Source: Chiloscyllium plagiosum
Lineage: Eukaryota
Length of the DNA stretch: 64,000 nucleotides
Assembly: GCF_004010195.1 (NCBI RefSeq)
Contig: NC_057735.1
Coordinates: 27,832,930 to 27,896,929, forward strand
Reading direction: 5' to 3'
This document shows, piece by piece, positions 2,540 to 61,741 of the stretch (its first letter is position 1; each line of letters starts with the position of its first letter). A program made the position numbers and the translations under genes. Below the pieces are notes generated by a model. The model ran no database searches. It was not told the DNA's origin and saw only the letters and a program-made list of their open reading frames with translations.

Positions 2540-3590
2540 CCCACTGACTCTGCTCTACCATTCAATAAGATCATAGCTTATCCGGCAATCCTCAACTCCA
2601 CTTTCCTTCCATTCACCCATAATACATTTTTAATTATTAAAGGAATCATGGTATCTATCTGGCCTTGAGTGCACTGGACAATCCAGTCAAGTCCACTGCA
2701 GCAAAGAATTCTATATCCTCAGTGAATAAATTCCTCTTAATCTGCTCTTATTGGGCAACACTTTACTAAAAGATCATGTTCTGTGATCCGAGACTCTCCT
2801 ACAAAAAAAAACAATCTTTCATATCTACCCTGTCAAGTCCCTCAGGAATCTTCTATCTTCTATTCTTCAATAAAATTGCCTAACATTCTTCTAAACTCTA
2901 ATGAGTACAGGTCAAATGTACTCAATTTTTCCTCAAAACCAAACATATCAATCTAGTGCTTCTTCTCTGGATTGCCTTCAATGCCAGTATATATCTTTCC
3001 TCAGGTAAGGGATTAAAACTCTTCACAGTATTTGAGCTGGAATTGATCAATGTCTTATACAGTTTTCACAAGGTTTCCCTATTTTTTATACCCTATTCCT
3101 TTTGCAATGAAGGGCCACATTCCATTTGCCTTTCCTATTGCCTGAAGAACATAGATGCTGGTTTTTTGTGATTTACGCAGGACTCTCCCACCTACCACCA
3201 AAGGTTCTTGTATGTAGCTTTCCGTAATCTTTGATTCAAATAATATTCAGCCTCCTCTATTCTTTCTGCATAACCTCATTTTCTCACATTATATTCCATC
3301 TGCCAAGTTTCTGCCCACATCTTCAACCTGTCCAAACCCTCTGCAAGCCCTTTTTTTTGTCTCAGCACTTGCCTTCCCATTTATTTTTGCATCATCTGAA
3401 AATTTGGCGACAGTACATTCAGTTGCCTCATTCAAGTCATTCATATATTGGAAATAATTTTGGCTCCAGGGCTGATTTCTGTGGAACTCCACTAGTTACA
3501 ATTTGCCATCCTATACCTCCCTTGTCTCAAATCTGTCTATTAGTTAGTAAATTCTCCATCCACGCTAACGTACTACCTCTAACACCACTT
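2540..3590 (-). mobile_element. Old CR1 LINE fragment
   Basis: YMNDLNEATECTVAKFSDDAKING (F-A-D-D-like RT motif). Confidence 0.7.
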
Positions 3591-4722: not shown

Positions 4723-5276
4723 CTATTGGAGAAATAAACAAGGCAGATAACTTAACTCCACAAGATCTAAATGATGGAAAATTTGTTAACTTGCACAGAT
4801 TAACAACTTGTTCGCAAGCAAATCATCTTATGAATATGAAACCTTTCGATATGATTAGTCACAGTATTTTAATCAATGTCTATCAACTGCATTTTGAATA
4901 TTCATAAACACAGGCAGTCTTAAAATTGCTAAGTTATTAGGACCACAAATATTGAATGTTGAGAGAAGCAATACAACATGCTTAACAATATTATGATATC
5001 AGATGATGTTATCCTTGGAGAAGTCAGATCCCAGACCAAAATAGGTCTTGATAAAACAAAAACAAAAGATTCTAACAAGGTTATTTCTCACTGAAATACA
5101 AACATGCAATGCTGCAGTTTTGAGTTCAACAATAAAACAACTTTACTACAACTTCACAAAAAAAAACTATTCACAGGTAACACATTTAATGATTTGAAAC
5201 ATGATATAAAATACAAACACATAAATCTAAAAAAAAACACTCCTGTATAGTTCCAGAGATAATTCCGTTTTCTTTC

Positions 5277-6026: not shown

Positions 6027-7644
6027 TTTTTTGAGGTATTTTAGGTGCTGGAGGTGATTTCCTTGAATTCCAGTAGCAGCAATTACTGTTTTATATGCTG
6101 TTGCATTGTTTTGGAACTTTGAAAACAAAAAGTCAAAACAACAGCAGTTTTAAAAGGGAGAAGAACAGACAAAGGAAGCACATGGTGAGGACAGTGCAAG
6201 AGATAGAGAGAGAGAGAGACAGAGAGAGAGAGAAATAGAGAGGGGGGGTGTGGGGAGGGGAGTACCTGCACGGTTACTGCCTTTGCTGGTTTTGAATTAA
6301 TGTGTCGCTGGACATCGGAGTGCATCTGGGAAAATTAACAAACAGTGAATTTCACAACTAATCTTGGAGGAACCAGTTTGGGCGAAGTTCACAACACCGA
6401 ATCAGATAAGTTAATTGTTGTTTTAAGTCAGTCCAAGAGAAAGGCTGTATTAATGAGTACGTGGGTTCTTTCTTGATTATATGTTTTTGGAGATAAGTCT
6501 CTTGATTACTTAAAATATAAGCAATAGCTACTAATTTAACCTGGTGCAGTGTTTTGTAGGGGAATAAGATGGTGTTATTTATTTTCTGGGTCATCTATAG
6601 GGTATATTTTAATTGTGGCCTCAACTCCCCGTCTTGAGACTGTGATAATCTTTCCCTGAAGCCTTTATACAAATGAATTTAGACTCTCAGCTTCAAATAA
6701 CTTCTTCAGGATTGTAACCAAACACTTCTGACTTCAACATTCTTAAACTACCTTCTTTGCTTAGGAGCAACTATTTTACACATTCAGCTTCAGCCAACTC
6801 TTCAGTGGACAAAAACTAAAGAGTTTCTTTTACCTCCAAGATATGAATGTTTCTTCAAAAAAAATCAATCACTAAGCTTGTAACACACATTGTTACTGTG
6901 TGCACTTGTAAAATCTCCCAATGTAAAAAAAATTCCTGATAGCCTCCTACAATTATCTCTCAAAAAGACTATTTAAAAATAAAACTCCATGCCAACAGAA
7001 ATAAACACCTTCAGACAGACTGAAAGCCCATACATCACTAAATCAACAGAAATAATGTACACATGAATCTCACACTTTGCATTACAATTGCAATATATAA
7101 TGTATGTTACCAGATTGATTGCACTAAATTATGCCAATGTTTTCTCTATACCCTTACCCTCCCAGTCCACCAAACCCTCCAAATGCACCCTGGCTATAAT
7201 GCAACTGCTACCCAAAACCATCACTTCAGAGGGTGTTATCATTCCCAAGGCATGTCCAAACATAACAGAGCAGCCCCTATAAGCCAGCAAGGGAAAGGAT
7301 AATTCTGAGAAAGAAAGCACCCTCTAACCGAGCCCAGGGGACACTGGCAACTTTGGAGTTCAGCAGCTAATCCCCTCTCTCAGGCACCAATGATTTTTTT
7401 TCATTGTTAAGCGAGCCCTTAGTTAATCCAATCCCACTTAACACTTCACCTCAGTATTTTCACTTAAATTCATAACTTTCAGGAACAAATGGTATTTTTA
7501 GAGAGGACAATCCATATTGTAAATCATACTGCAATATAACATGGAATTGCAGCTTTTCTAAAGGTATTCGATTTACCATTTATTATTTACTCGATGGGAA
7601 AAGATTAGTTTAAAATATTGAAATAAAGCAATATGCCAGAGGTA

Positions 7645-7844
7645 GGAGAAAGTGAGGACTGTAAATGCTGGAGATCAGAGTACAGAGTGTGGTGCTGGAA
7701 AAGCACAGCAGGTCAGGCAACATCACAGTAGTAGGAGAATCGACATTTCGGGCATAAGCCCTTCATCAGGAATAGGATTCCTGATGCAGTGCTAATGCCT
7801 ATTCTCCTGCTCCTCGGATGCTGCCTGACCTGTTGTGCTTTTCC
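7645..7844. mobile_element. Palindromic Penelope terminal-repeat insertion (family A)
   Basis: Inverted arms; flanked by a degenerate 13-nt duplication TATGCCAGAGGTA / TATGCTGGAGGTA. Confidence 0.7.
7742..7769 (-). ncRNA. Minimal hammerhead ribozyme core (family A), sense within C6orf89 intron 1
   Basis: Minus strand CTGATGA-AGGGC-TTAT-GCCC-GAAATGTC. Confidence 0.65.
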
Positions 7845-10093: not shown

Positions 10094-10627
10094 AAAGAAT
10101 CTAAAAAAAAATGCCATTGTAAACCTAGTTATATTGTATTCAACAATACCCAACTTTATTGAGGACTTAGACTTCAAACCTGTTTGTCTCATTGTATAAG
10201 TTCTCATCAGTCCACAGATATGCCTTTGACATGTGCTCTGGGGAAGCTTAAAATCATTCAGATGACCTCTAGTCCTGCATTCTTCTGTACGTGAACAGAC
10301 TCTTGGAACTGCAGTCAGTTTCAGTAATGTCGCAAACACTGACAGCTTTTCAATCATTACAACAAAATCTAGGCTACTGTCTGTATGCTAGTCCAACCTA
10401 TAAAGCACAACTGCTGGAAGAAAAACTATCAACAGAATAATACCTTTTAATTATAAGCTTCACAGAGCTGTTCAAAGGAGCTGAGATCTCTGTGGCAGGT
10501 TGGTAGCAGACCTGTGCAGAATTTTCAGTCCACCAGGATCTGCTGGCCAAACATTCCACTGTCTGTGGACTTCAACATATTCACTTCAAGCATGCTCTAA
10601 AGATCATCTGGGATCTCTCCATCAAGA

Positions 10628-10748
10628 GCAAGTGAGGACTGCAGATGCTGGAGCATCAGAGTCAAAAAGGGGGCACAGGAAAAGCACAGGTGGTCAGACA
10701 ACATTCTAGGAGCAGGATAGTCTACTTTTCGGGCATAAGCCCTTCATC
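10628..10748 (-). mobile_element. Degenerate Penelope terminal-repeat fragment (family A)
   Basis: aagtgaggactgcagatgctggag...ttttcgggcataagcccttcatc, shared with the other copies. Confidence 0.6.
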
Positions 10749-16884: not shown

Positions 16885-17645
16885 TCAGGGTCCAGCCACA
16901 GGATGGTGGGGTTGGTGGGCGTGGACCTGACGAGGGAGTCAGGGAGGGAATGGTCTCTCTGGAATGCTGATTGGGGTGGGGGGGGGGGAAATGCCCACAC
17001 CCCACTCCTGTCACCCTTCCCTGCCACCGCAGAAAGTGCACCCCACCAGCCCACACCCCACTCCTGACATCTTTCCATTGGTACATCTTCTAATGTCACC
17101 TACTGCATCTGTTGCACCAGGTGTGGTCTCCTCTACATCGGGGAGACAGGACACTTTCTGGCAGATTCTTTCAGAGAACATCTCTGGGACACCGGTACCC
17201 ATCGACCCCAATGCCCCATGGCTGAACACTTCAACTCCCCCTCTCACTCCGTCAAGGACATGCAGGTCCTGGGCCTCCTCCACTGCCTACCCCCAGGGTC
17301 TGGGGTAGAACACCTCATATTCTGCCTTGGGACCCTGTAACTACACAGGATAAACATGGATTTCAACAGCTTACTCATATCCTCTCCCCTAACATCATCC
17401 CAGCCCCGAACCTTCAACTCGGCACCACCCTTCGGACCTGTCCATCACTCCCCCTCTGACCTATCACCTTTTCTGTCACCTTCATCCACCTATCACTTTC
17501 TCAGCTACCCACCCCACCTCCCTCCCATTTATCTCTCAGCTCCGGCCCACAAGCCTCATTCCTGATGAAGGGCTTATGCTTGGAATGTCGATTTTCCTGC
17601 TCCTCAGATGCTGCCCGATCTGCTAAGCCTTTCCAGCAACACACT
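16885..17645 (+). mobile_element. Penelope-like retroelement 3' part (GIY-YIG remnant) with an inverted 5' segment
   Basis: Plus strand NVTYCICCTRCGLLYIGETG (about 17092-17150); minus strand FPPPP.SAFQRDHSLPDSLVRS linker; ends in a family A terminal repeat with a degenerate hammerhead at 17562. Confidence 0.8.
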
Positions 17646-18720
17646 CTGGACACACATACACACACTCTTACATACTCACATACTCACGCAGACCCTCTCT
17701 CACACACACGCTCTCTCTCATACACACATAGACCCCCCACACTTACACCCAGACACAGGCTTATACTCAATCACACCCACACATACTTTACCAAGCTTTC
17801 ACACATATAAACACACACTCTCTCACATACACTCACACTCGCATGCACACACTCAAATGCACATACTCTCTCTCTCTCATGCACGCACACACATATATAA
17901 GTCTATGGGGTGAATTTGTATTTGCAGAATTATATTTGCAGATTTTGCTCAAAAATGCACAATCTGCAGGCAGTCAATTCAGGCAGTCAATACATGTAAT
18001 ACTTTGTAAATTCCACTTTGGAAATAAAACCAGTCTGACTCAAGATTAGGATACAGACAAATTCTGACCTCACACTTTAATGCATTGTCTGAACTGAGAT
18101 ATCACATTTTTTTATAAAACCTTAAGTTATCTCGAGAGGTGACTTAAAAGAAGCTCTGGGATTCACATATTAATAAACTACAATCTGCAACCCATTCTGA
18201 AAGATGAAAGACTTAACATCAACCCAGGTTTACTGAAAGCTCGTGCCTCCAAATAAACCTGTTGGACTATAGCCTGGTGTTGTGTGATTTTTAACTCAAT
18301 TCAGGTTTGTTCAATATATCATTTCAGTTGCATGATACTGTAATCATTTGCTATAAATTCTGTGTCTTATGATCTTATACGCCACAATCATCTGATGAAG
18401 GAGCAGCACTCCAAAATCTAGTGCTTCCAAATAAACCTGTCAGATTCTAACCTGGTTGAGAGTGTAGTGCTGGAAAAGCACAGCAGGTCAGGCAGTGTCC
18501 GAGGAGCAGGAGAATCGATGTTTTGGGCATAAGCCCTTCATCAGGAATGATTCTTGAAGAGAGGCTTATGCCTGAAATGTCGTTTCTCCTGCTCCTTGGA
18601 TGCTGCCTGACCTGGTGTGCTTTTCCAGCATTACACTCTCGACTCTGATCTCCAGCATCTGCAGTCCTCACCTTCTCCTCCAGATTATAACCTGACGTTG
18701 CGTGATTTTTAAATTTGACC
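17646..18720 (+). mobile_element. Penelope family B 3' region (CA-rich tract, terminal repeats) with a nested family A palindrome at 18455-18680
   Basis: Degenerate CTGATGAAGGAGC at 18392; nested insert flanked by CAGATTCTAACCTG / CAGATTATAACCTG. Confidence 0.7.
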
Positions 18721-21794: not shown

Positions 21795-23090
21795 TCTTTC
21801 ATGGGATGGAGGTATCGCTGGCTGGCCAGCATTTATTGTCCAACTATAGTTGCCCTTGAGGAACTGCCTTCTTGAACCACTGCATTCTACCTGCTGTGAG
21901 TAAACCCACAATACCCATTAAAAAGGGAATTCCAAGATATTGATGAGCGACAATGAAGAAATGGTGGATTTGCAACTGTGAAGCCTGTTAAAAGTACAGG
22001 TTAAAAATTGGAACAATGTGAGTTTGCCTGTGGATGTTGAATTTTGTTGTTTGGTAAGGATAGGTGAATTTGTGATTCATAAACTTGTGAATACAGAGGA
22101 TTTGCTGTGTTTCCAAGTTAGGACAGTGTGGCTTGGAAGGGAACTTGCAAGTGGTGGTGTTCCCAAGTATCTGCTGCCCTTGTCCTTCTAAATGTGGAGG
22201 TATTGGCATTGAACTCGGGTGGACAAAGTCAAAAGTCTCACAACACCAGGTTACAGTCCAACAGGTTTATTTGAAATTACAAGCTTTCAGAGCGCTGCTC
22301 TTTTGTCAGGGGTAGTGTCTTTCTAGCTGGAAGAGATTGAGGATTTGAAAGGTGCTGTCTGAGGATCTTTGCTGAATTTCTGCAGTGCATCATATAGTTA
22401 GCACATTCTGCTGCTACTGAGCATATGTGGTGAAAGGAGTGGATGTGTGTGGATATATTGCCAATCAAGCAGGCTGCTTAAGTCAAGTTTCCTGAATGTT
22501 GCTGGATCTGCACTCATCCAAGCTAATAGGAAGTTTTCTATCACCCTCCTGACTTGTACCTTGTAGATGATGAACATGCTTTGGGCAGTCAGGAGGTGAG
22601 TTACTAACTGCAGTACTCCCAGCCTCTGACCTGCCCTTTTTGCCACTGTGTTTGTGCAATGAGTCCAGTTGAGTTTCTAGTTAATGGTAACCCCAAGGAT
22701 GTTGGGGAATTCAGAGTTAGTAACACCATTGAATGTCAATGACCAGTGGTTAGATTGTCTCTTATTCCAAATGGGCATAACCTGGCTTTGCTGTGTTATG
22801 AATGCCACAATGCTATTCAGGTGAGAATTCTAGGATCTTGACCCAACAACAATGAAGGAATGGCAATATATTTCCAAATCAGAATGGTGAGTGGCAGACA
22901 AGGGAATTTGCAGGTGATGGTGTTCCCATGTATCTGCTGCCCATATTTTTCTAGATGGAAGTGCTCGTGGGTTTGGAAGATGCTTTCTACAGATCTTTGG
23001 TGAATTTTGGCAATGTGTTGTACACATTGCTGCTACTGAGGGTCGGTGGTGGGAGGATTCAATATTTGTGGATGTGGTGCCCCTATCAAA
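21795..23090 (-). mobile_element. Old L2/CR1-group LINE fragments
   Basis: AGQRLGVLQLVTHLL...IYKVQVRRVIE..LAWMSA RT C-terminal peptide; duplicated 3' segments. Confidence 0.6.
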
Positions 23091-23629: not shown

Positions 23630-25405
23630 GTGGCTATCACTAAGGGGAAGATAGATAAATTACCTGGACCAGATGGACTACACCACAGGGTTCAGGAGAA
23701 AACAGTTGAGAAGATTGTAGAGACATTGGTGGTGATCTTTCAAGAATCACTGGAGTCAGGGAGGGTCCCAGAGGACTGGAATTGGCTGATGTAACACTCC
23801 TGTTTAAGAAGGGAAGGAGGCAGAAGACAGAAAATTATAGGCCACTTAGCCTAACCTCAGTCATTGGCAAGATTTTCGAGGCCATTATTTGGGACGAGAA
23901 TGAGGAGCATTTAGAAAGATACAGTAAAACAGAGCTGAGTCAATGGGAAAGTGAGGACTGCAAATACTGAAGATCAAAGTTGAGAGTGTGGTGCTAGAAA
24001 AGCATAGCAGGTCAGGCAGCATCCAAGGTGCAGGAGCATCGACATTTCAGGCATAAGCCCTTCATCAGGAATCAAGGGAAAGTCATGTCCGACAAATCTG
24101 TTAGAATTCTTGAGGAGGTAACGAGCAAGTTAGATAAAACAGAGCCAGTGGATGTGATCTATTTGGATTTCCAGAAGGTCTTTGACAAGGTGCTACACAG
24201 GACGCTGCTGAGATAACAGCCTATGGTATAGGGGCAAAGTACTGACATGGTTAGAGGATTGGCTGTTAGGCAGAAGGCAGAGAGTTGGAATAAAGAGATA
24301 TTTTTAGGATGTTAGCCAATACTAGTGGAGTTCTGCAACAGTCAGTGTTAGGACCACAATTATTCATGTTATACATTAACAAACTAGCTAAAGGAGTTTG
24401 CAGATAACACAAAAATAAGTGGAAGGACCAGTCATGCTGAGCAAGTGGGGAGATGCAAAAGGCACTGGACAGGCTAGGAGAGTGGGCGAAAAAATGACAG
24501 ATGGAATACAAGGTGGAGAAGTTAGAGGTTATGCACATTGATAGGAAGAACAGAGGCATAGACTATTTTCTAAATGGGGAAAGGCTTTTGACATCTGCAG
24601 CACATATGAGGCATTCTAGTTTAGGATCTTTTAAGGTTAACATGCAGATTCAGTTGGCACTTAGGAAGGTAAATGCAATGTTAACATTCAATCCAAGAGA
24701 GCTGGTTTGCAAGAGCAGGGGTGCACCATTGAGGCTGTATGCTCTAGTCAGACCACATTTGAAATATTGTGGCAGTTTTGGGTGCCATGTCTAAGGAAGG
24801 ATGTGCTCGCCATGTGGGGGATCCACATGAGATTCACAAGAATGATCCAGGGAATGGCAAATGGGACTAGATCAGTTTAGAATATCTGGTCAGTGTGAAC
24901 AAATTGGGCCGAAGAGTCTGTTTCTGTGCTGTATAACTCCATGACCCTATGAAAAGCTTGTCATAGGAGGAACAGTTGAGGGCTCTGAGTCTGTACTAGG
25001 TGGAGTTTAGAAAGGTTGGGGGGGGGTTCTCATTGAAACTTGCAGAATACTGAGAGGCCTGGGTAGTGTGGATGTGGAGAAGATGTTCAGGTAAGATTAG
25101 CACCCAAGGGCAAAGCCTCAGAGTGAAGGGATGACTCTTTAGAACTGAGATGAGGGGAATTTCTTCACTCAGATGGTGATGAATCTGTGGAACTCATTGC
25201 GACAGAAAGCTGAGGAGGTCAAGTCATTGAATTTCTTTAAGGCAGAGATACATGGATTCTTGATTAGTAAGGGGATCAAGGATTATGGTGAGATGTTAGG
25301 AGGATGAGTTGACAAATATGTCAGCCATGATTGAATGGTGAAGCAGACTCGATGGGCTGAATGGCTTAATTCTATTCCTATGTCATATGGTCTTAATGGT
25401 CTTAT
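23630..25405 (+). mobile_element. CR1 LINE with a nested Penelope family A piece (about 23945-24072)
   Basis: PGPDGLHHRV, ENYRPLSLTSVIGK, VDVIYLDFQKVFDKV. Confidence 0.88.
24041..24068 (-). ncRNA. Minimal hammerhead ribozyme core (family A)
   Basis: Minus strand CTGATGA-AGGGC-TTAT-GCCT-GAAATGTC. Confidence 0.65.
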
Positions 25406-25826
25406 TAACATTCTGCTTGCAATAAATACCATCATTATTGTACCTGCAAACTAACCTTTTGTAACTCATATAGCAGGCCACCTGGATTTCTCTGTGCATC
25501 CATGTTCTGTACTGTTGCATTCACTATTGTAATATAGAAATCAATTATGCATAGTCAGATCCACAAACATCACTGAGATAATGAGCAAATCATTTTTATA
25601 AGTGACATTATCCAGGACATTGGTGACAGCTCTCCAGTATTTCTTCAAAATGTGCCATGGGACATTTTCAACAGGGCAAAGAGGAACTCATCATCATCTG
25701 AAAGGAAGAGCCTTAAATTTGTTTTAAACTATGAATAATATTCTTGAAACAATTTAAAATGATTTAAAATGCACACTGTGTCTAACTGCAGGATGAAGAG
25801 TAATGCTTGTTCCTTGCCAAAAGTAG

Positions 25827-26103
25827 GAGAAAGTGAGGACTGCAGATGCTGGAGATCAGAGCTGAAAATGTGTTGCTGGAAAAGCGCAGCAGGTCAGGCA
25901 GCATCCAAGGAGCAGGAGAATCGACGTTTCGGGCATAAGCCCTTCTTCAGGAATAGCTGAAAATTTGTTGCTGGAAAAGCACAGCAGGTCAGGAAGCATC
26001 CAAGGAGCAGGAGAATCGACGTTTCGGGCATGAGCCCTTCTATTCTCCTGCTCCTTGGATGCTGCCTGACCTGCTCCGCTTTTCCAGCAACACATTTTCA
26101 GCT
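25827..26103. mobile_element. Young Penelope family A insertion: two tandem arms plus one inverted arm
   Basis: Perfect 14-nt TSD CTTGCCAAAAGTAG at 25813-25826 and 26104-26117. Confidence 0.8.
25923..25950 (-). ncRNA. Minimal hammerhead ribozyme core (Penelope family A)
   Basis: Minus strand CTGAAGA-AGGGC-TTAT-GCCC-GAAACGTC: palindromic ACGT, GUC cleavage triplet; stem I weak. Confidence 0.75.
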
Positions 26104-28995
26104 CTTGCCAAAAGTAGATAAACCTGCATGTTTAATGCTGATTGCATTTTTGAACAATTAGTCTATTTTACTGTTGGTAATTACTTAAGCCACCACACCC
26201 TGGGTGTAGTCAGGACAGGTGGATATCGATAACCAATTACCTCGAGCAGGCTTTAACAGTCATATTAATTTAGTCTGTGGTGGCAATGATTTCTGGCAAA
26301 GAGTTTTGACATAACCCACAATAATTCTGACAATGTTTCTCATGTCAGAATGAAAATAAAGACTGAAATTGATAGTGTTAACACATCTTTCTGTTCAAAT
26401 TTCTTACAAATCTGAAAAATATTCAAATGGTTCACTTCAAGGTTTTGAATGACTTGTCTCTAAGGAACATTTTTTTTAAAAAATGATTCTTTCTCATTGT
26501 TAAGAAAATACTAAAGACTAGACAGACATTTGTGATACCAGCTGGAGCTTGATTTAAATGAAATACTATGTAAATTGTAAATTACAATTCAAGTATTAAA
26601 CTAGCTGTATGTAAAGCATTTTACTCTATTTAAAATGTGTTGCCTTCATGAAAAATGTTTGGCAAATTTATTTTTTTAATATTTCAATGAAAGTGCATCA
26701 AAGGCATCACATCATTTTCGTCACAATTACTTAATACAATTGGGCATTTTAGCATCAGAATGCATGTACAAACAATTGTTTAATGAAGATCTATTCTGCA
26801 CGTCTTTGCCATTAACAAACACAAGCCTGAAATCACAAACATCAATAAAATGGCAATTTCTTGTTTTTTTTTCCCAGAAAGGCGGACTTAAATTTGTGTA
26901 TTTTATAATAAGAGACTTTTAACTTACATGAGAGGGGAGGAGATGGGGCAACTTCTTATAGAATATGGTTTAAGAAACCTTTCTCATCCTTTAATGAGAT
27001 TTACACACTTTTCATCCTGAAAAGGATTAAATCTTTAGGTGCTGACTGGGTCTGATCTGAAGTAAATGATATGAGTTACTTATGCTGTAATGCGTCAATC
27101 AAATTCAAGACATCTGTACAAGCATCATGTTGCTGCAGCAGATGAAAAATATTTGAGGACTGTCAGGATAAATTTGGCCAATAAATGAATCTTGCTTTTG
27201 ATGTCCTAATATTTTTAATGATGATTGTGAAGTGCTAGCTTAAATAAACAAGCTTTTTTTTAAAAAAAGTACATGATTCTTACATTGTTGCTGCAACCGT
27301 CATGGGTGTCCAGAGAGAAGCAACAGATAGGGTAATTAGCCTGTCCAACTTACACTGAAAATAGTTGAAATGGTGAACATTTCAACTTATGTTTCAATAA
27401 TATTTTAATTTGCTTTTAAGTCCATACTTTGGAAAGATAATGAAAAGAGGCACTGTCAGAATTCATTACAGTTTCATGACTGCAGGCATTAAATTAGTTA
27501 ACAGCCAAAAATAAGAATATTTAGGTCTTGCACAAAAATCTGTATAATGTCAACATACTTATTCTGTTTTGTACCTCCAGTTTTTCTTGAAACACTTCCC
27601 TGAAAAAAGTATCGTTTAGGGAGAATTGTTTGCATTAAGAATGTGTTTTCTCTGTAGATTTATTGAAATTGCTGTTCCCTCAACATCTACAAGCAGGACT
27701 GGCACATTAAAGACAGTTATCATGCTAATGTAGTTACTTCTTTAATTTGAATTTTGAACTTTACTGCCTGAACATTGAACATCAATTATTCTGGATCTTT
27801 CATGCTGCACAATGTTTTGGAAATAACAAATTGTGGAAATTTTATTGACTTTCCCTACATGGTCGCCTATGCCTGATCCTCTGATTAACAGGAGGAATAG
27901 ACAACAATTGCTGTCTTTGCCAGTGATTTCGAAATCCTGGGAAATAATAAAGAACTAAAAGTAGGTCATCAGGCCAATTTTTAATAATTTGGAGGGTCAA
28001 ATTGGTAGCTTAAACCTTTCTGTCTTGACTGGAGCACAAATTTGTTCACAACTTGATTATAATAGTTCAATGCTTATTAATTCATTAAGAGTAAATGCAA
28101 TATTCAATGTTATTGAGTGAAATTTCAAATGAGTAAGTGCATAGATTTAAGGTGAGGATTAGTGCATTTAAAAGGCCAATGTTAGTAACTGAACATTATA
28201 TATTTTTAAAAAATATATTCTGTAAAAGCCAATAAAAACCTTAGACTAAATCATGTAGATTCTACGCAATCAATTACACTATAGACAAAGAATTATCAGG
28301 ACCTTGGAGACAGCGTACAGATTTTCCATAAAGAGTGCAGTTATTCTCTTATTTTTACACTACAGCACTATGGATGCAAAACTGACAGTATAACATGCGA
28401 GTCATATCCCAATCTGAATCCAGAGAGGAGACATATAATAGTGCATGAAAAGCTATTGAACTGCTTAGGTATGAAACTGCATGTGTCAATTGCGTTAAAT
28501 GCTTTAAGAATTGCTCTGGGCATTTTGTAACATCAAAAAATTGAATATTGCATTGTATTCTTGCAATATCAACTGTAAGAGAAGTTCTGTGTATATATGT
28601 AAATAAATATGTAGAAAATTCTTTAATTACACAAAGAATGAAGTCTCCACCAAGGTAGTCCAATACAGGTACTGTAAGACTGAAATACATTCTGAGCTAA
28701 GACCAATATAAACATATTCTGAACTAAGACTAAGCAATACTGTACTATTGTAAGTTAACTCATCCACTATGCATCCCTCTCTCTTATCTAAAAACGCTGA
28801 AAGGACCTCAAATCTTTTAGGCAATTGCAAAGGCTGAGGCCTCAGCACTTAAGCTCTTTGGGTCCCCTTACTTTCCTCGCTTGTTGTCATATCTTCCTTT
28901 CCCGGACCAGTGGCCAGATCAGAAGTTCCAACTCTGAGGGGTGCGATTGCCTCCCAGAACAAAATGGCCTGTTATCATTCCCTCTGCTCGATCTG

Positions 28996-47124: not shown

Positions 47125-48200
47125 TGTTAAAAATCACACTACTCCCAAGCTATAGTCCAACAGGTTTCTTTGGAAGCACAAGCTTTCAGAGCGCTGCTCC
47201 TTCGTCATGTAGCTAGTGGGGCTCGATTATAGGACACAATTTATAGTAAAAGATCAAAGTGTCATTCAACTGATGCGATGCATTGAATAAACTTAGATTG
47301 CTGTTAAGTCTTTAATTACTTAGAACGGGGAAGCAGTTTTCGATTAATTCTTATGTAAATTCCAGGACTTATTTCAAGTAACAGTCCCAAGATAACTTAA
47401 TATTTTATATTAGAAAAGTGAGATCTCAGCTCGCAAGGTGCATTAAAGGTGTGAGGTGAGAGTCTGTCTGTATCGCAACCTTGAGACAGGCTGCTTCTAT
47501 TTCCAAAGTGGGAATTTATAAAATTAGATTACTTACAATGTGGAAACAGGCCCTTTGGCCCAACAAGTCCACACCAACCCGCCGAAGCGTAACCCACCCA
47601 GACCCATTCTCCTACATTTACCCCTTCACCTAACACTGCGGGTAATTCAGCATGGCCAATTCACCTAACCTGCACATTTTTGGACTGTGGGAGGAAACCG
47701 GAGCACCCGGAGGAAACCTACGCAGACACGGGGAGAATGTGCAAACTCGATACAGAGAGTCGCTTGAGGCGGGAATTGAACCCGGGTCTCTGGCGCTGTG
47801 AGGCCGTAGTGCTAACCACTGTGCCACCCACAAAATGTAACATGGACTGACTGCCTACAGATTCTGTGCATTTTGAGCAAAATCGAATGTATCTGCAAAT
47901 GAAAATTCATCTCATAGACTGATGTGTGTATGTGTGTGTGTTGTGTGGGAGAGATTATGCATTGTGCTTGCTTGGTAAAGTGTGTTAGAGTGTGACGGAG
48001 TATATGCCTCTGAGAGGTTGTGCACATGTGTGTGTCTGAGAGACAGCATGCGATTGAGAGAGGGTCTGTGTGGGTGTGATTGTGTGTATAGTGTAGTGGG
48101 GTCACCTGTAGTGTGAGATGAGCCCAAGATCCTGATTGTGGCCATCCTCATGGGTACCAAACTTGACTATTAGCCTCTGCTCAGCAACATTATATTGTTG
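47125..48200 (-). mobile_element. Penelope family B 3' region interrupted by an HE1 SINE
   Basis: Reverse-complement homolog of 17650-18440, including the TG-rich tract and terminal repeat. Confidence 0.65.
47524..47829 (-). mobile_element. HE1 SINE
   Basis: Full-length reverse complement of the HE1 consensus. Confidence 0.9.
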
Positions 48201-51521: not shown

Positions 51522-53277
51522 GTGAGTTGAAGGATAATCACAAAGGGGAACGTATTCTTGCTGTAAATTACTAGCTACAAAAAATGTAAACAGCTAAGGA
51601 AAATACGAAAGATCCACAAAATTCAGTTTAACACGTACCATAATACTGCTTTTCAATGGGAGAATAAATTCTTTAATGTAATCAAAATTGTGGATAATGT
51701 ATTGAACATTTTAAAGATTGCATTCAGTAGATTTTTGCCAAGTAAAGATTCTGCAAAAAGGCAGCAAAGGGGAGATGAGGTAGAAGATCAGCTATGATCT
51801 TTTCAATAACTAAGCAAACTTGAGGGATTGCATAATGTAACCTAGCTCATAATCTTTGCATTCAAATCAGCTTAATTCAAGAGGATATTTAAAGCATTCC
51901 TAATGAAGGTAAAGTGTATAAATAATTCTGGCATAATCAATGTTTTTATGTAAAATTCTTCATTTGATTCAATCACCCTGCATCTTTGTACTTAACCCTC
52001 TTAAACTCAGTCTGGTTTTAGTTTTTCAGCAATTTCAAATGCTATACTTATATCACGATAACCAAGAAATGTAAGCAGGCAGTGTATCACTGCGTTGCCT
52101 CTTGTCAGTCACAGGTAGCTTGAGAGTCAGAGCGATGACTTATGTTTCTCTATAGGAATAGAAGCAGCTGTTCAATTATTTTCCACACCATTGCATGGAT
52201 TGTAAAATCTCTAGGATTACATGCATTCATGAGAAATTGAGGTTATTCTTCAGTCGCTACTCAGGAGAAGAAAAAAACAACAACAAAAATCTGTTTTTTG
52301 GTTGAACCGTTTTGGATATTAGTTCTGTAAGTGCTAAAGATAGTGTTAACTTCTGCTGTATTGAATGATTGGAGATGAGTGTTATTTTGATCCAAACTCC
52401 AGGAAATGGTCAAGCAAAGTTTATTTTCCAAAACGTTTTTGATTTGGGGAAGGTTCCATTAGACTGGAATACACCAAATGTGATTATTTTATTCAGAAGG
52501 GGAGGAGACAGAAAACAGTAAGTTACAGACCAGTTTGTTTTGATAGCTGCCATACGGAAAATGTTAGAAACTTTAACTAAAGACATTATAGCGAGGCACT
52601 TAGGTAAGTTCAATGTAATCCAGCAGAGTTAGTATGGTTTTGTGAAAGGTAAATCATCTTTAACCAATCTATCAGCGTCTTTGAGGAAATAACACATTCA
52701 GTGTAAGGGTGACTTGGGTATATAGTGTACTTCAATTTAAAAAAATAATTTGATAAGGTGCCACAGAAAGTAGAAGTTCGTGGTGTAGAGGGTAGCATGT
52801 TGGCATGGATAGAGGATTGGCTGGATATCAGGAAGTAGAGGGAAGGCAAAAATGGGTCATTTTCAGATTGACACATTATAATGAGTGTTGTGCCACAGAA
52901 AGTGGTGCTGGAATCTTTACTGATTCCAATTTATTTCAATGACTTGGATGAAGAGATTGAAGATATAGTTGCTACATTTGTTGATATCAAGAAGACAGGT
53001 TGAAAAGTAAGTTACAAAGAGGACATAAGGAGGCTACGAAAAGATATGCGTTTAAGTAGTGGGCAAATAGAATATAACATGGGGGAAAAATGAATGTACT
53101 TCTGCTTTGGCAGAAAGAATAAAAAGCATTTTGTCTAAATGGTGAGAGATTGCAGAACTTTGCTATGCAGAGATAGCTTAATGTCCTGGTATATGAATTG
53201 CATAAGGCGAGTGTGCATGAATATGTGAAACCTCATACAATATTATCATTTATTGTGGAGTGCGTTGAATAAAAAAG

Positions 53278-53466
53278 TTAAAAATCACACAACACCAGGT
53301 TATAGTCCAACAGGTTTAATTGGAAGCACACTAGCTTTCGGAGCGACGCTCCTTCATCAGGTGATTGAAAGCCAGTGTGCTTCCAATTAAACCTGTTGGA
53401 CTATAACCTGGTGTTGTGTGATTTTTAACTTTGTACACCCCAGTCCAACACCGGCATCTCCGAATC
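53278..53466. mobile_element. Young palindromic Penelope family B insertion nested in a CR1 LINE
   Basis: Inverted arms of about 65 nt; perfect 13-nt TSD TTGAATAAAAAAG at 53265-53277 and 53467-53479. Confidence 0.8.
53332..53360 (-). ncRNA. Minimal type I hammerhead ribozyme core (Penelope family B)
   Basis: Minus strand cac-CTGATGA-AGGAGC-GTC-GCTCC-GAAAGCTA-gtg: intact core boxes, 5-bp stem II, palindromic AGCT stem III, 3-bp stem I. Confidence 0.8.
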
Positions 53467-54209
53467 TTGAATAAAAAAGGTAGAGATGTCTATACAGATC
53501 ATTGAGAGACCACATCTAACTATTGTGTACTGTATTGGTCAACCTATTTAAGGGGGGATATAAATGTTTTGGAAGCAGTTCAGAGAAGGTTTGCTAGTCT
53601 AATACCGGGAATGGCTACATTATGTTATGAGGAAATACTGGACAGGCTATGCTTACATCTACTGGAATTTAGAAGAAAAAGACGTGACTTGATTAAGACA
53701 ATAGATCCTGAGGGGTCTTTGACGAGGTGAATGTCAAGATGATGTTTCCTCTTAATGGAAAATCAAGAACTAGGGTCACTGGTTAAAAATCAGACATGAG
53801 ATGAAATTTCTTCTCCCAGTTTCACAAATCTGTGGAACAGTCTTCCTGAGAAAGTGTTAGAAGAGGCATCCTTGAATATTTTAAAGACAGAAATGGATAG
53901 CTTCTTGTTAAGAGAGGTTATCTGGGATAGTGTGGATCTGGATTTGAGGTTATTAAATGGTAGAGAAGACCCTGGGAGCCTAGTGGCCTATTTCTGCTGT
54001 TCATACATTTACAACACAAAATGCAACTCACTTGAAAACTTGGGAGGCAGTAAACATGGGCTTTGCCTATCATGTTCTGCTTGTTAAATGTGTTGTTCAA
54101 ATAACTAATGGTACTGTTTAAATAATTTAAGTACAAATGTTTATGTAAAAGGATATGGGATAAGCTATTTGTTGGGCATTTTCCCTGGTGCTTCAAAGGA
54201 TAGGGTGAA

Positions 54210-61214: not shown

Positions 61215-61741
61215 AGAAGATTTGCGGCCTAGGTTGTGGTTCAGGTTGGAAGTTTCTGGCAGTTTCTGATAAGACAGGATGTTGCTGCTGTGATTGGCTG
61301 AGACATTTGCCAGTCAGTTCTTAAATTAATTGGTGTATAAAAAGATGATCTTACTTGGCAATGAAGGGTTAGCTGAACTGGTAGATTTGTCCTCCGATGT
61401 TCGTCACCATGTGAGGTAACATCATCAATGAGCCTCCATTGAAGTGCTGGCATTTTGTCCCACTTTTTATTTATGTGTCTTGGTATGTTGTGGTGGGTGA
61501 TATCATTTCCGGTTATTTTTCTGGGAGGTTGGTAAATGAGGTCCAACAGTGCTTCAATGAAGGCTCACTAATGATGTTATCTCACATAGTGATGAAACGT
61601 CGGAGAACAAATTTACCAGCTCAGCTAACCCTTCATTGCCAAGTAAGATCATCTTTTTATACACCAATTAATTTAAGAACTGACTGGCAAATGTCTCAGC
61701 CAATCACAGCAGCAACATCCTGTCTTATCAGAAACTGCCAG
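61215..61741. repeat. Long inverted repeat around a Penelope family D palindrome in LEMD2 intron 5
   Basis: Arms about 61256-61450 and 61547-61741; degenerate hammerhead CTAATGA...GAAACGTC at 61568-61601. Confidence 0.85.

Follow-up and report, generated by a model that had tools for sequence, protein, structure and literature searches.

A short palindromic insert interrupts an old dispersed repeat in the window, the 64,000-nt stretch of Chiloscyllium plagiosum DNA analysed here. The insert measures 189 nt (53278-53466) and lies between two exact copies of a 13-nt target site duplication (TSD), TTGAATAAAAAAG, at 53265-53277 and 53467-53479, a match with a chance of about 8e-5 over 20x20 placements. 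Inverted arms of 66 nt (53274-53339 and 53367-53432) are 98% complementary across a 27-nt spacer, and the fold of the whole insert has a z score of -17.8, none of 200 shuffles being equally stable. The initial annotation of the window had described a non-coding palindromic insert with an exact 13-nt TSD, and this description was borne out. The parts of the locus are given below, with offsets counted along the minus strand from 0 at C3 of a hammerhead ribozyme (HHR) motif (53360); arms P and T are ends of a Penelope-like element (PLE).

52600-53264, plus strand: target, upstream part of a decayed dispersed repeat
53265-53277: left TSD copy, ending in AAAG, 4 nt shared with the pLTR end
53277-53367, minus strand: arm P, spanning offsets -7 to +83 of the PLE end; it terminates at the pLTR end and lacks the tail
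53315-53320, minus strand: ATTAAA poly(A) signal of the pLTR, offsets +40 to +45
53329-53363, minus strand: minimal type I HHR, within arm P
53367: head-to-head junction, where the arms overlap by 1 nt (-7/+21)
53367-53466, plus strand: arm T, PLE end from offset +21 to +120, tail included
53430-53466, plus strand: 37-nt PLE tail, between two inferred reverse transcriptase (RT) start sites
53467-53479: right TSD copy, an exact repeat
53480-53950, plus strand: the same decayed repeat, resuming downstream of the TSD by paralogue alignment

The upstream part of the target repeat is one that we take, from its motifs, to be the RT of a CR1-type LINE; a Pfam search of the decayed flank repeat gave no match. 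Paralogues spanning both flanks were not among the matches listed by a strict search and were found by a laxer one. In the best-scoring of these, at about 60% identity, the flanks are contiguous with a projected gap of -4 to -9, where -13 was expected. Since the flanks continue each other in the paralogues, the locus represents a true insertion with duplication. The AAAG shared by the left TSD copy and the pLTR end is possibly a priming microhomology. Among the 15 joints listed of 459 in three DNA runs, no empty allele was observed. Arm P differs from the commonest letter of each column at none of 91 positions and the whole insert at one of 191 arm positions, so that, judged from sequence, the insertion is young. 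By the same kind of evidence it is an extremely truncated PLE insertion of the published type, an inverted copy plus a tail.

Read along the minus strand from 53363 to 53329, the HHR motif is CAC-CUGAUGA-A-GGAGC-GUC-GCUCC-GAAA-GC-UA-GUG. It comprises stem I (CAC/GUG), CUGAUGA at 53360-53354, stem II (GGAGC/GCUCC), GAAA at 53339-53336 and an AGCU palindrome, with the predicted cut between 53332 and 53331. The initial annotation had placed a minimal hammerhead on this strand; the motif is indeed there, and what that reading had omitted is an extra A at 53353, between CUGAUGA and stem II. All the features of a minimal type I PLE hammerhead were found, namely the CUGANGA/GAAA/UH core, the extra base between 9 and 10.1 and the palindromic 15.2-16.2. 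The PLE origin first proposed is upheld, as is the palindromic AGCU in place of stem III. An extra base between 9 and 10.1 is typical of metazoan PLE minimal HHRs in the available text of Cervera and de la Pena 2014 (PMC4209133), and the motifs described there share with ours this base, the G10.1-C11.1 pair, the palindromic 15.2-16.2 and the lack of helix III. Stems I and II have 3 and 5 bp in the window, whereas they have 4-5 and 7-8 bp in the Schistosoma families given in that text. The same source links truncated PLEs with pairs of motifs that lie on opposite strands at a distance of 100-700 bp, and found monomers of minimal HHRs inactive and dimers weakly active. The Rfam check that had been proposed for the motif returned no Hammerhead match at E <= 5 in the whole window, as is expected for a motif without helix III. 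Over the element, Rfam gave only sub-threshold miRNA-hairpin models (MIR860 and mir-2005), and these identities were rejected as generic hairpins scoring far under their gathering thresholds.

Whether this copy could cleave itself is a separate matter. In the predicted fold of the whole insert, the mirror arm pairs GAAA, AGCU and the cut site, and G21-G29 are paired with a predicted probability of at least 0.99. The predicted cost of freeing the HHR is 21.2 kcal/mol in the whole insert, 5.5 in the isolated arm and 1.5 in the motif alone, where stem I itself forms with a predicted probability of 0.14. Arm T has neither CUGAUGA nor stem II and carries T27C, at the U16.1 position, at 53373. An excess of T27C among the top genome matches was traced to query bias, the change being present in 3 of 256 pattern-anchored arms. 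A core no more conserved than its flanks across copies had been named beforehand as grounds for abandoning the idea of an active ribozyme, and this was the outcome: mismatches numbered 21/876 in the core and 69/3103 outside it (P = 0.80), and on this sequence comparison the core decays at the same rate as its flanks. The HHR core is avoided by all five of the common non-CpG variant sites (-6, -4, loop 13-14, 29-30 and 41), which hints weakly at selection acting on source elements. The most frequent indel in the family, the presence or absence of GT (205 vs 49 arms), lies at 53331-53330 (+29/+30), exactly 3' of the predicted cut.

Transcripts of the family were examined in run X19, a 3' single-cell library bearing the same species label, of which about 2% was read. 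Family RNA is mostly sense and polyadenylated, with poly(A) at +57/+60 (53303/53300) in 834 reads. Depth is level across the cut site (1238, 1229 and 1222), which implies that uncut family RNA exists; cut products of about 30 nt would be lost from such a library. No RNA reads reached into the flanks of the window locus. The poly(A) site, at 53300-53303 in the window and at 4763-4766 in a coding copy described below (L081), is upstream of both RT start sites, and long copies must therefore derive from read-through or circular RNA, not from a polyadenylated 3' end. Given the predicted masking, the decay of the core and the family transcripts that cross the cut site, the window copy appears to be a poor ribozyme candidate, its core predicted to be hidden by the mirror arm; the initial annotation had ranked it the best candidate for an active self-cleaving RNA in the window. 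The motif is real, yet by these predictions masked.

Other pieces of this kind are present in the window. Older PLE-end fragments, 75-87% identical, lie at 18235-18462, 18683-18717, 22209-22310 and 47126-47325, each in a single orientation and with no matching mirror arm in the alignment. A second HHR-bearing palindromic family occupies 7634-7844, 10626-10748, 17550-17651, 18455-18679, 23947-24074 and 25815-26106, with the motif CUGAUGAA-GGGC/GCCC-GAAA on the minus strand at 7769, 24068 and 25950; it probably represents the ends of another PLE. An inverted self-match of about 490 nt, at 82%, is found at 61256-61741.

A genome search with the whole insert returned many loci, each with its own TSD and with differing centres. 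Exact matches in the genome number 5,057 for a 36-nt HHR pattern and 24,035 for a 31-nt arm pattern taken from downstream of the cut site, against seven for the window junction, so the copy count that had been called for did not reveal a unit multiplied as such. Many copies extend upstream into a longer element, and the two ends of the window insert also flank copies with RT and GIY-YIG coding sequence, at every length. In one (L081) an RT frame (PF00078, E 1.9e-8) is enclosed by the same two ends in head-to-head arrangement. The GIY-YIG-like frame of L081 (Atlas 0.95) falls in clusters with PF01541 on 20-33% of members and has a visible VY...YIG motif; Pfam searches of this frame and of the ORF N-terminus gave no match. 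Through L081 the parent appears to be an autonomous PLE with RT and GIY-YIG. An 18-nt tandem array at 1678-2301 of the same locus has expanded from a CA/GT-rich part of the PLE 3' UTR. A second coding copy (L227) has the direct arrangement pLTR-ORF-pLTR, with a pLTR at 2763-3160, an ATG at 3161, a second pLTR reaching 6862 and a middle that is partly N. Its ORF begins at +121 with the ATG straight after the tail, and in full-length copies the ORF ATG likewise abuts the 37-nt tail, a junction with six exact matches in the genome. No intact ORF could be read end to end, the long ORFs of candidate copies being mostly N-filled. A further locus (L231) starts at -8 and passes through the tail into the ORF. 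It also holds, at 1389-2584, a direct-orientation insertion made of two pieces: a pLTR-end piece whose limit is -9 and, fused to it, one that extends from a point about 1 kb inside the ORF back to -8. This join suggests that synthesis jumped to another template at the 5' end of the RNA, by which tandem pLTRs might arise.

Inverted-copy architecture and an HHR motif are already in print for such elements. EN+ PLE insertions, in the portions of PMC8557442, PMC3846280 and PMC2377424 available to us, have an inverted pLTR and a 30-40-bp tail. The insertions described here resemble them in the head-to-head inverted 5'-truncated copy, the tail at one end, the TSD, the HHR in the pLTR and the order RT then GIY-YIG. 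Unlike them, the window insert consists of the two ends with nothing else left; TSDs here are 12-13 nt, compared with 8-10 bp given for Adineta PLEs, and the ORF begins after the tail, whereas in the published EN+ PLEs it begins inside the pLTR. Non-LTR retrozymes are likewise non-coding, carry a type I HHR and are related to PLE pLTRs; in the available text (bioRxiv 10.64898/2026.07.22.740005) they are tandem arrays whose units run head to tail, each having its own HHR. That identity was set aside for the window insert, which is single, head to head and has one complete motif.

The initial annotation had called the insert a recently mobilised non-autonomous cassette. Its recent date agrees with the single difference in 191 positions; its status as a cassette does not fit the coding copies between the same ends or the rarity of its junction. 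The corresponding explanation, a distinct palindromic mini-element with an active ribozyme, multiplied as a whole, we regard as highly improbable. It would account for the seven exact copies of the window junction at separate sites, for the many inserts of about 200 nt and for the rarity of full-length source-type junctions (the six exact tail-ORF matches). Against it, junctions form a continuum in which the seven are set beside the 24,035 arms, the same ends surround coding copies of every length, and the HHR core is neither conserved nor, by prediction, exposed. The seven copies also differ among themselves: one (L207) has the tail on the opposite arm, three (L204, L208 and L209) differ in arms or alleles, and some have older alleles. 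On the simpler reading, we infer that this junction type formed repeatedly and independently, as a one-sided hotspot and a one-base overlap would allow. A MITE-like family with fixed internal structure was also considered and rejected, junctions varying copy by copy.

Once overlapping duplicates had been removed, loci L031-L202, all within the first 68 Mb of contig C1, supplied 269 arms whose ends were mapped. Loci L001-L030, chosen by likeness to the query, were excluded; the anchor was the HHR for L031-L120 and a sequence downstream of the HHR for L121-L202. The sample, drawn with exact patterns, favours young copies, and the junction spectra describe the fetched loci rather than a genome-wide gapped census. 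There were 79 directly joined pairs, the remaining 111 arms being unpaired at the distance limit used. A pLTR end was joined to a tail end (P+T) in 68 of the 79, with four P+P, three T+T and four unclassed pairs; 68 of 75 classed pairs departs from a coin toss at P = 1e-13. Direct repeats of 10-17 nt, with a mode of 12-13, flank 55 of the 79. Many of these inserts are about 200 nt long, and near-perfect palindromic junctions and short overlaps are common.

Ends were concentrated just upstream of the HHR. Among 87 downstream-anchored arms, a sample blind to arms that do not reach the anchor at +37, 16 pass -13, 53 end at -13 to +4, 12 at +5 to +28, four at +31 (two of which run on upstream as the short allele) and two later. 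None of the 87 ends at +29/+30, and HHR cleavage was rejected as the source of arm ends. A G precedes the end of 16 of 18 arms stopping at -8 and of 47 of 160 arms stopping elsewhere (P = 1e-6), and the G at -8 is seen on both arm types. Genome-wide, the cDNA-strand base after -8 is the templated G in 5,444 cases, C in 1,292 and A or T in 304, so that C makes up 1,292 of 1,596 non-templated bases (81%); after -9, C was found in 16 of the 100 cases listed first among 969 non-templated ones. In arms that pass -9 the base there is C in 98 of 100 and never G, and the extra G is therefore not an allele. Read from genomic copies, the sole informative RNA run being a 3' library, it may be the signature of a copied cap. 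The window copy itself stops at -7 without the extra G, and the cap step is therefore argued from the population of copies.

The pile-up at -8 could instead mark a stop of RT at the base of an RNA stem (5' AAUCAC/GUGAUU near the pLTR end), followed by a non-templated C, with two-ended priming otherwise correct. The stem is predicted to be closed in the isolated arm, and ends are scattered over -13 to +4 instead of falling on one base. RT arriving from +84 or +120 would, on the other hand, open the 3' side of the stem before reaching -8, and the C excess is specific to -8 (81% vs 16% at -9, the latter among the 100 matches listed). By the initiator rule, transcription starts at a pyrimidine-purine step, and -8 is an A after a C. 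A stop of this kind is very unlikely. The 16 of 87 arms that extend beyond -13 need another template, read-through or circular RNA, and count against a capped start.

Fold-back has been proposed for Adineta in the available text of PMC3846280. In its terms the palindrome would be of PLE origin and would arise by self-priming of one strand on an antisense template, the tail then being trimmed by the endonuclease. The near-perfect palindromic junctions with short overlaps suit this proposal, and 22 of 68 pairs have the longer arm on the tail side, as cDNA fold-back predicts. The tail-less arm, however, reaches further 5' in 43 of the 68, the window copy included, and a simple fold-back of one cDNA, which needs the longer tail arm, cannot yield those. 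The extra G occurs on both arm types, tied to sense-strand position, and the family RNA is mostly sense and polyadenylated, which also speaks against an antisense template. Of 74 pairs, 13 have arms that disagree at a 2-nt indel, the background discordance for substitutions being 3.3%. This indel is linked to subfamily markers, and the discordance suggests two RNA templates in some events; the loop marker is concordant in most of the 13, which slippage or conversion could also explain. We consider fold-back unlikely.

In our judgement the insert is quite probably a pair of 5'-truncated ends of an autonomous RT and GIY-YIG PLE, set head to head in a 13-nt target duplication and likely produced in one event, with cDNA synthesis on capped element RNA primed from each of the two nicked strands. 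The endonuclease would make a staggered cut of about 13 nt, leaving two 3' ends, of which one would prime at +83/84 and the other at +120. Both sites would lie in a 128-nt 5' UTR, so that RT, once it had copied about 90-130 nt, would run off its template at the capped 5' end. One such cDNA per strand would result, and the 3' ends of the pair would then be joined through microhomology or with a few filler bases and the joint trimmed, in the window copy at -7 and +21, yielding the head-to-head structure and the TSD. The HHR would be a passenger, and the resulting copy dead on arrival. For the fuller proposal our confidence is slightly better than even: a dimeric RT-endonuclease would cut the strands about 13 nt apart, use one RT start site per strand, often on two RNAs, and run off the 5' end of its own capped mRNA.

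Both target strands were cut and extended in vitro by the Anolis Poseidon element PAc, for which the available text of Frangieh 2024 (PMC11167929) reports two RT start sites bounding the tail, insertion unblocked by HHR mutants and an HHR inactive without protein. The positions +83/84 and +120 are likened to these two sites, which lie within the ORF in PAc, whereas here they lie within the 5' UTR. The Penelope/Poseidon label for the parent would reflect likeness to PAc only. One-site-per-strand pairing and the cap G are not described in the text of that paper available to us. No report of a P+T rule or cap G in PLEs was found in the literature searched, which lay largely outside subscription papers and without supplements; Figs S1-S2 of PMC11167929 may bear on the point.

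In twin priming of L1, the parts of the single poly(A)-primed RNA that become inverted do not overlap; here both cDNAs would copy the same stretch from internal sites, which gives a palindrome. The inserts resemble twin-primed L1 in an inverted segment primed by the second target strand and in an extra G read as a copied cap, the latter an untemplated 5' G in L1 and SVA (available text of PMC4859970).

The window locus is an ordinary dead transposon stump, one of thousands, and the statistics of the family weigh more than the locus, the genome-wide pattern hinting at a mode of PLE insertion. Inserts of this kind are liable to be mistaken for MITEs or miRNA hairpins. Three features favour two-ended priming on capped sense RNA: the use of one start site per strand, the cap G and the greater length of the arm lacking the tail. 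If this is true, a single insertion step would account for the inverted pLTR, for a tail on one side and for the great number of palindromes of about 200 nt, with neither an antisense template nor ribozyme cleavage, and the thousands of genomic copies would be fossil reaction products of the PLE insertion step.
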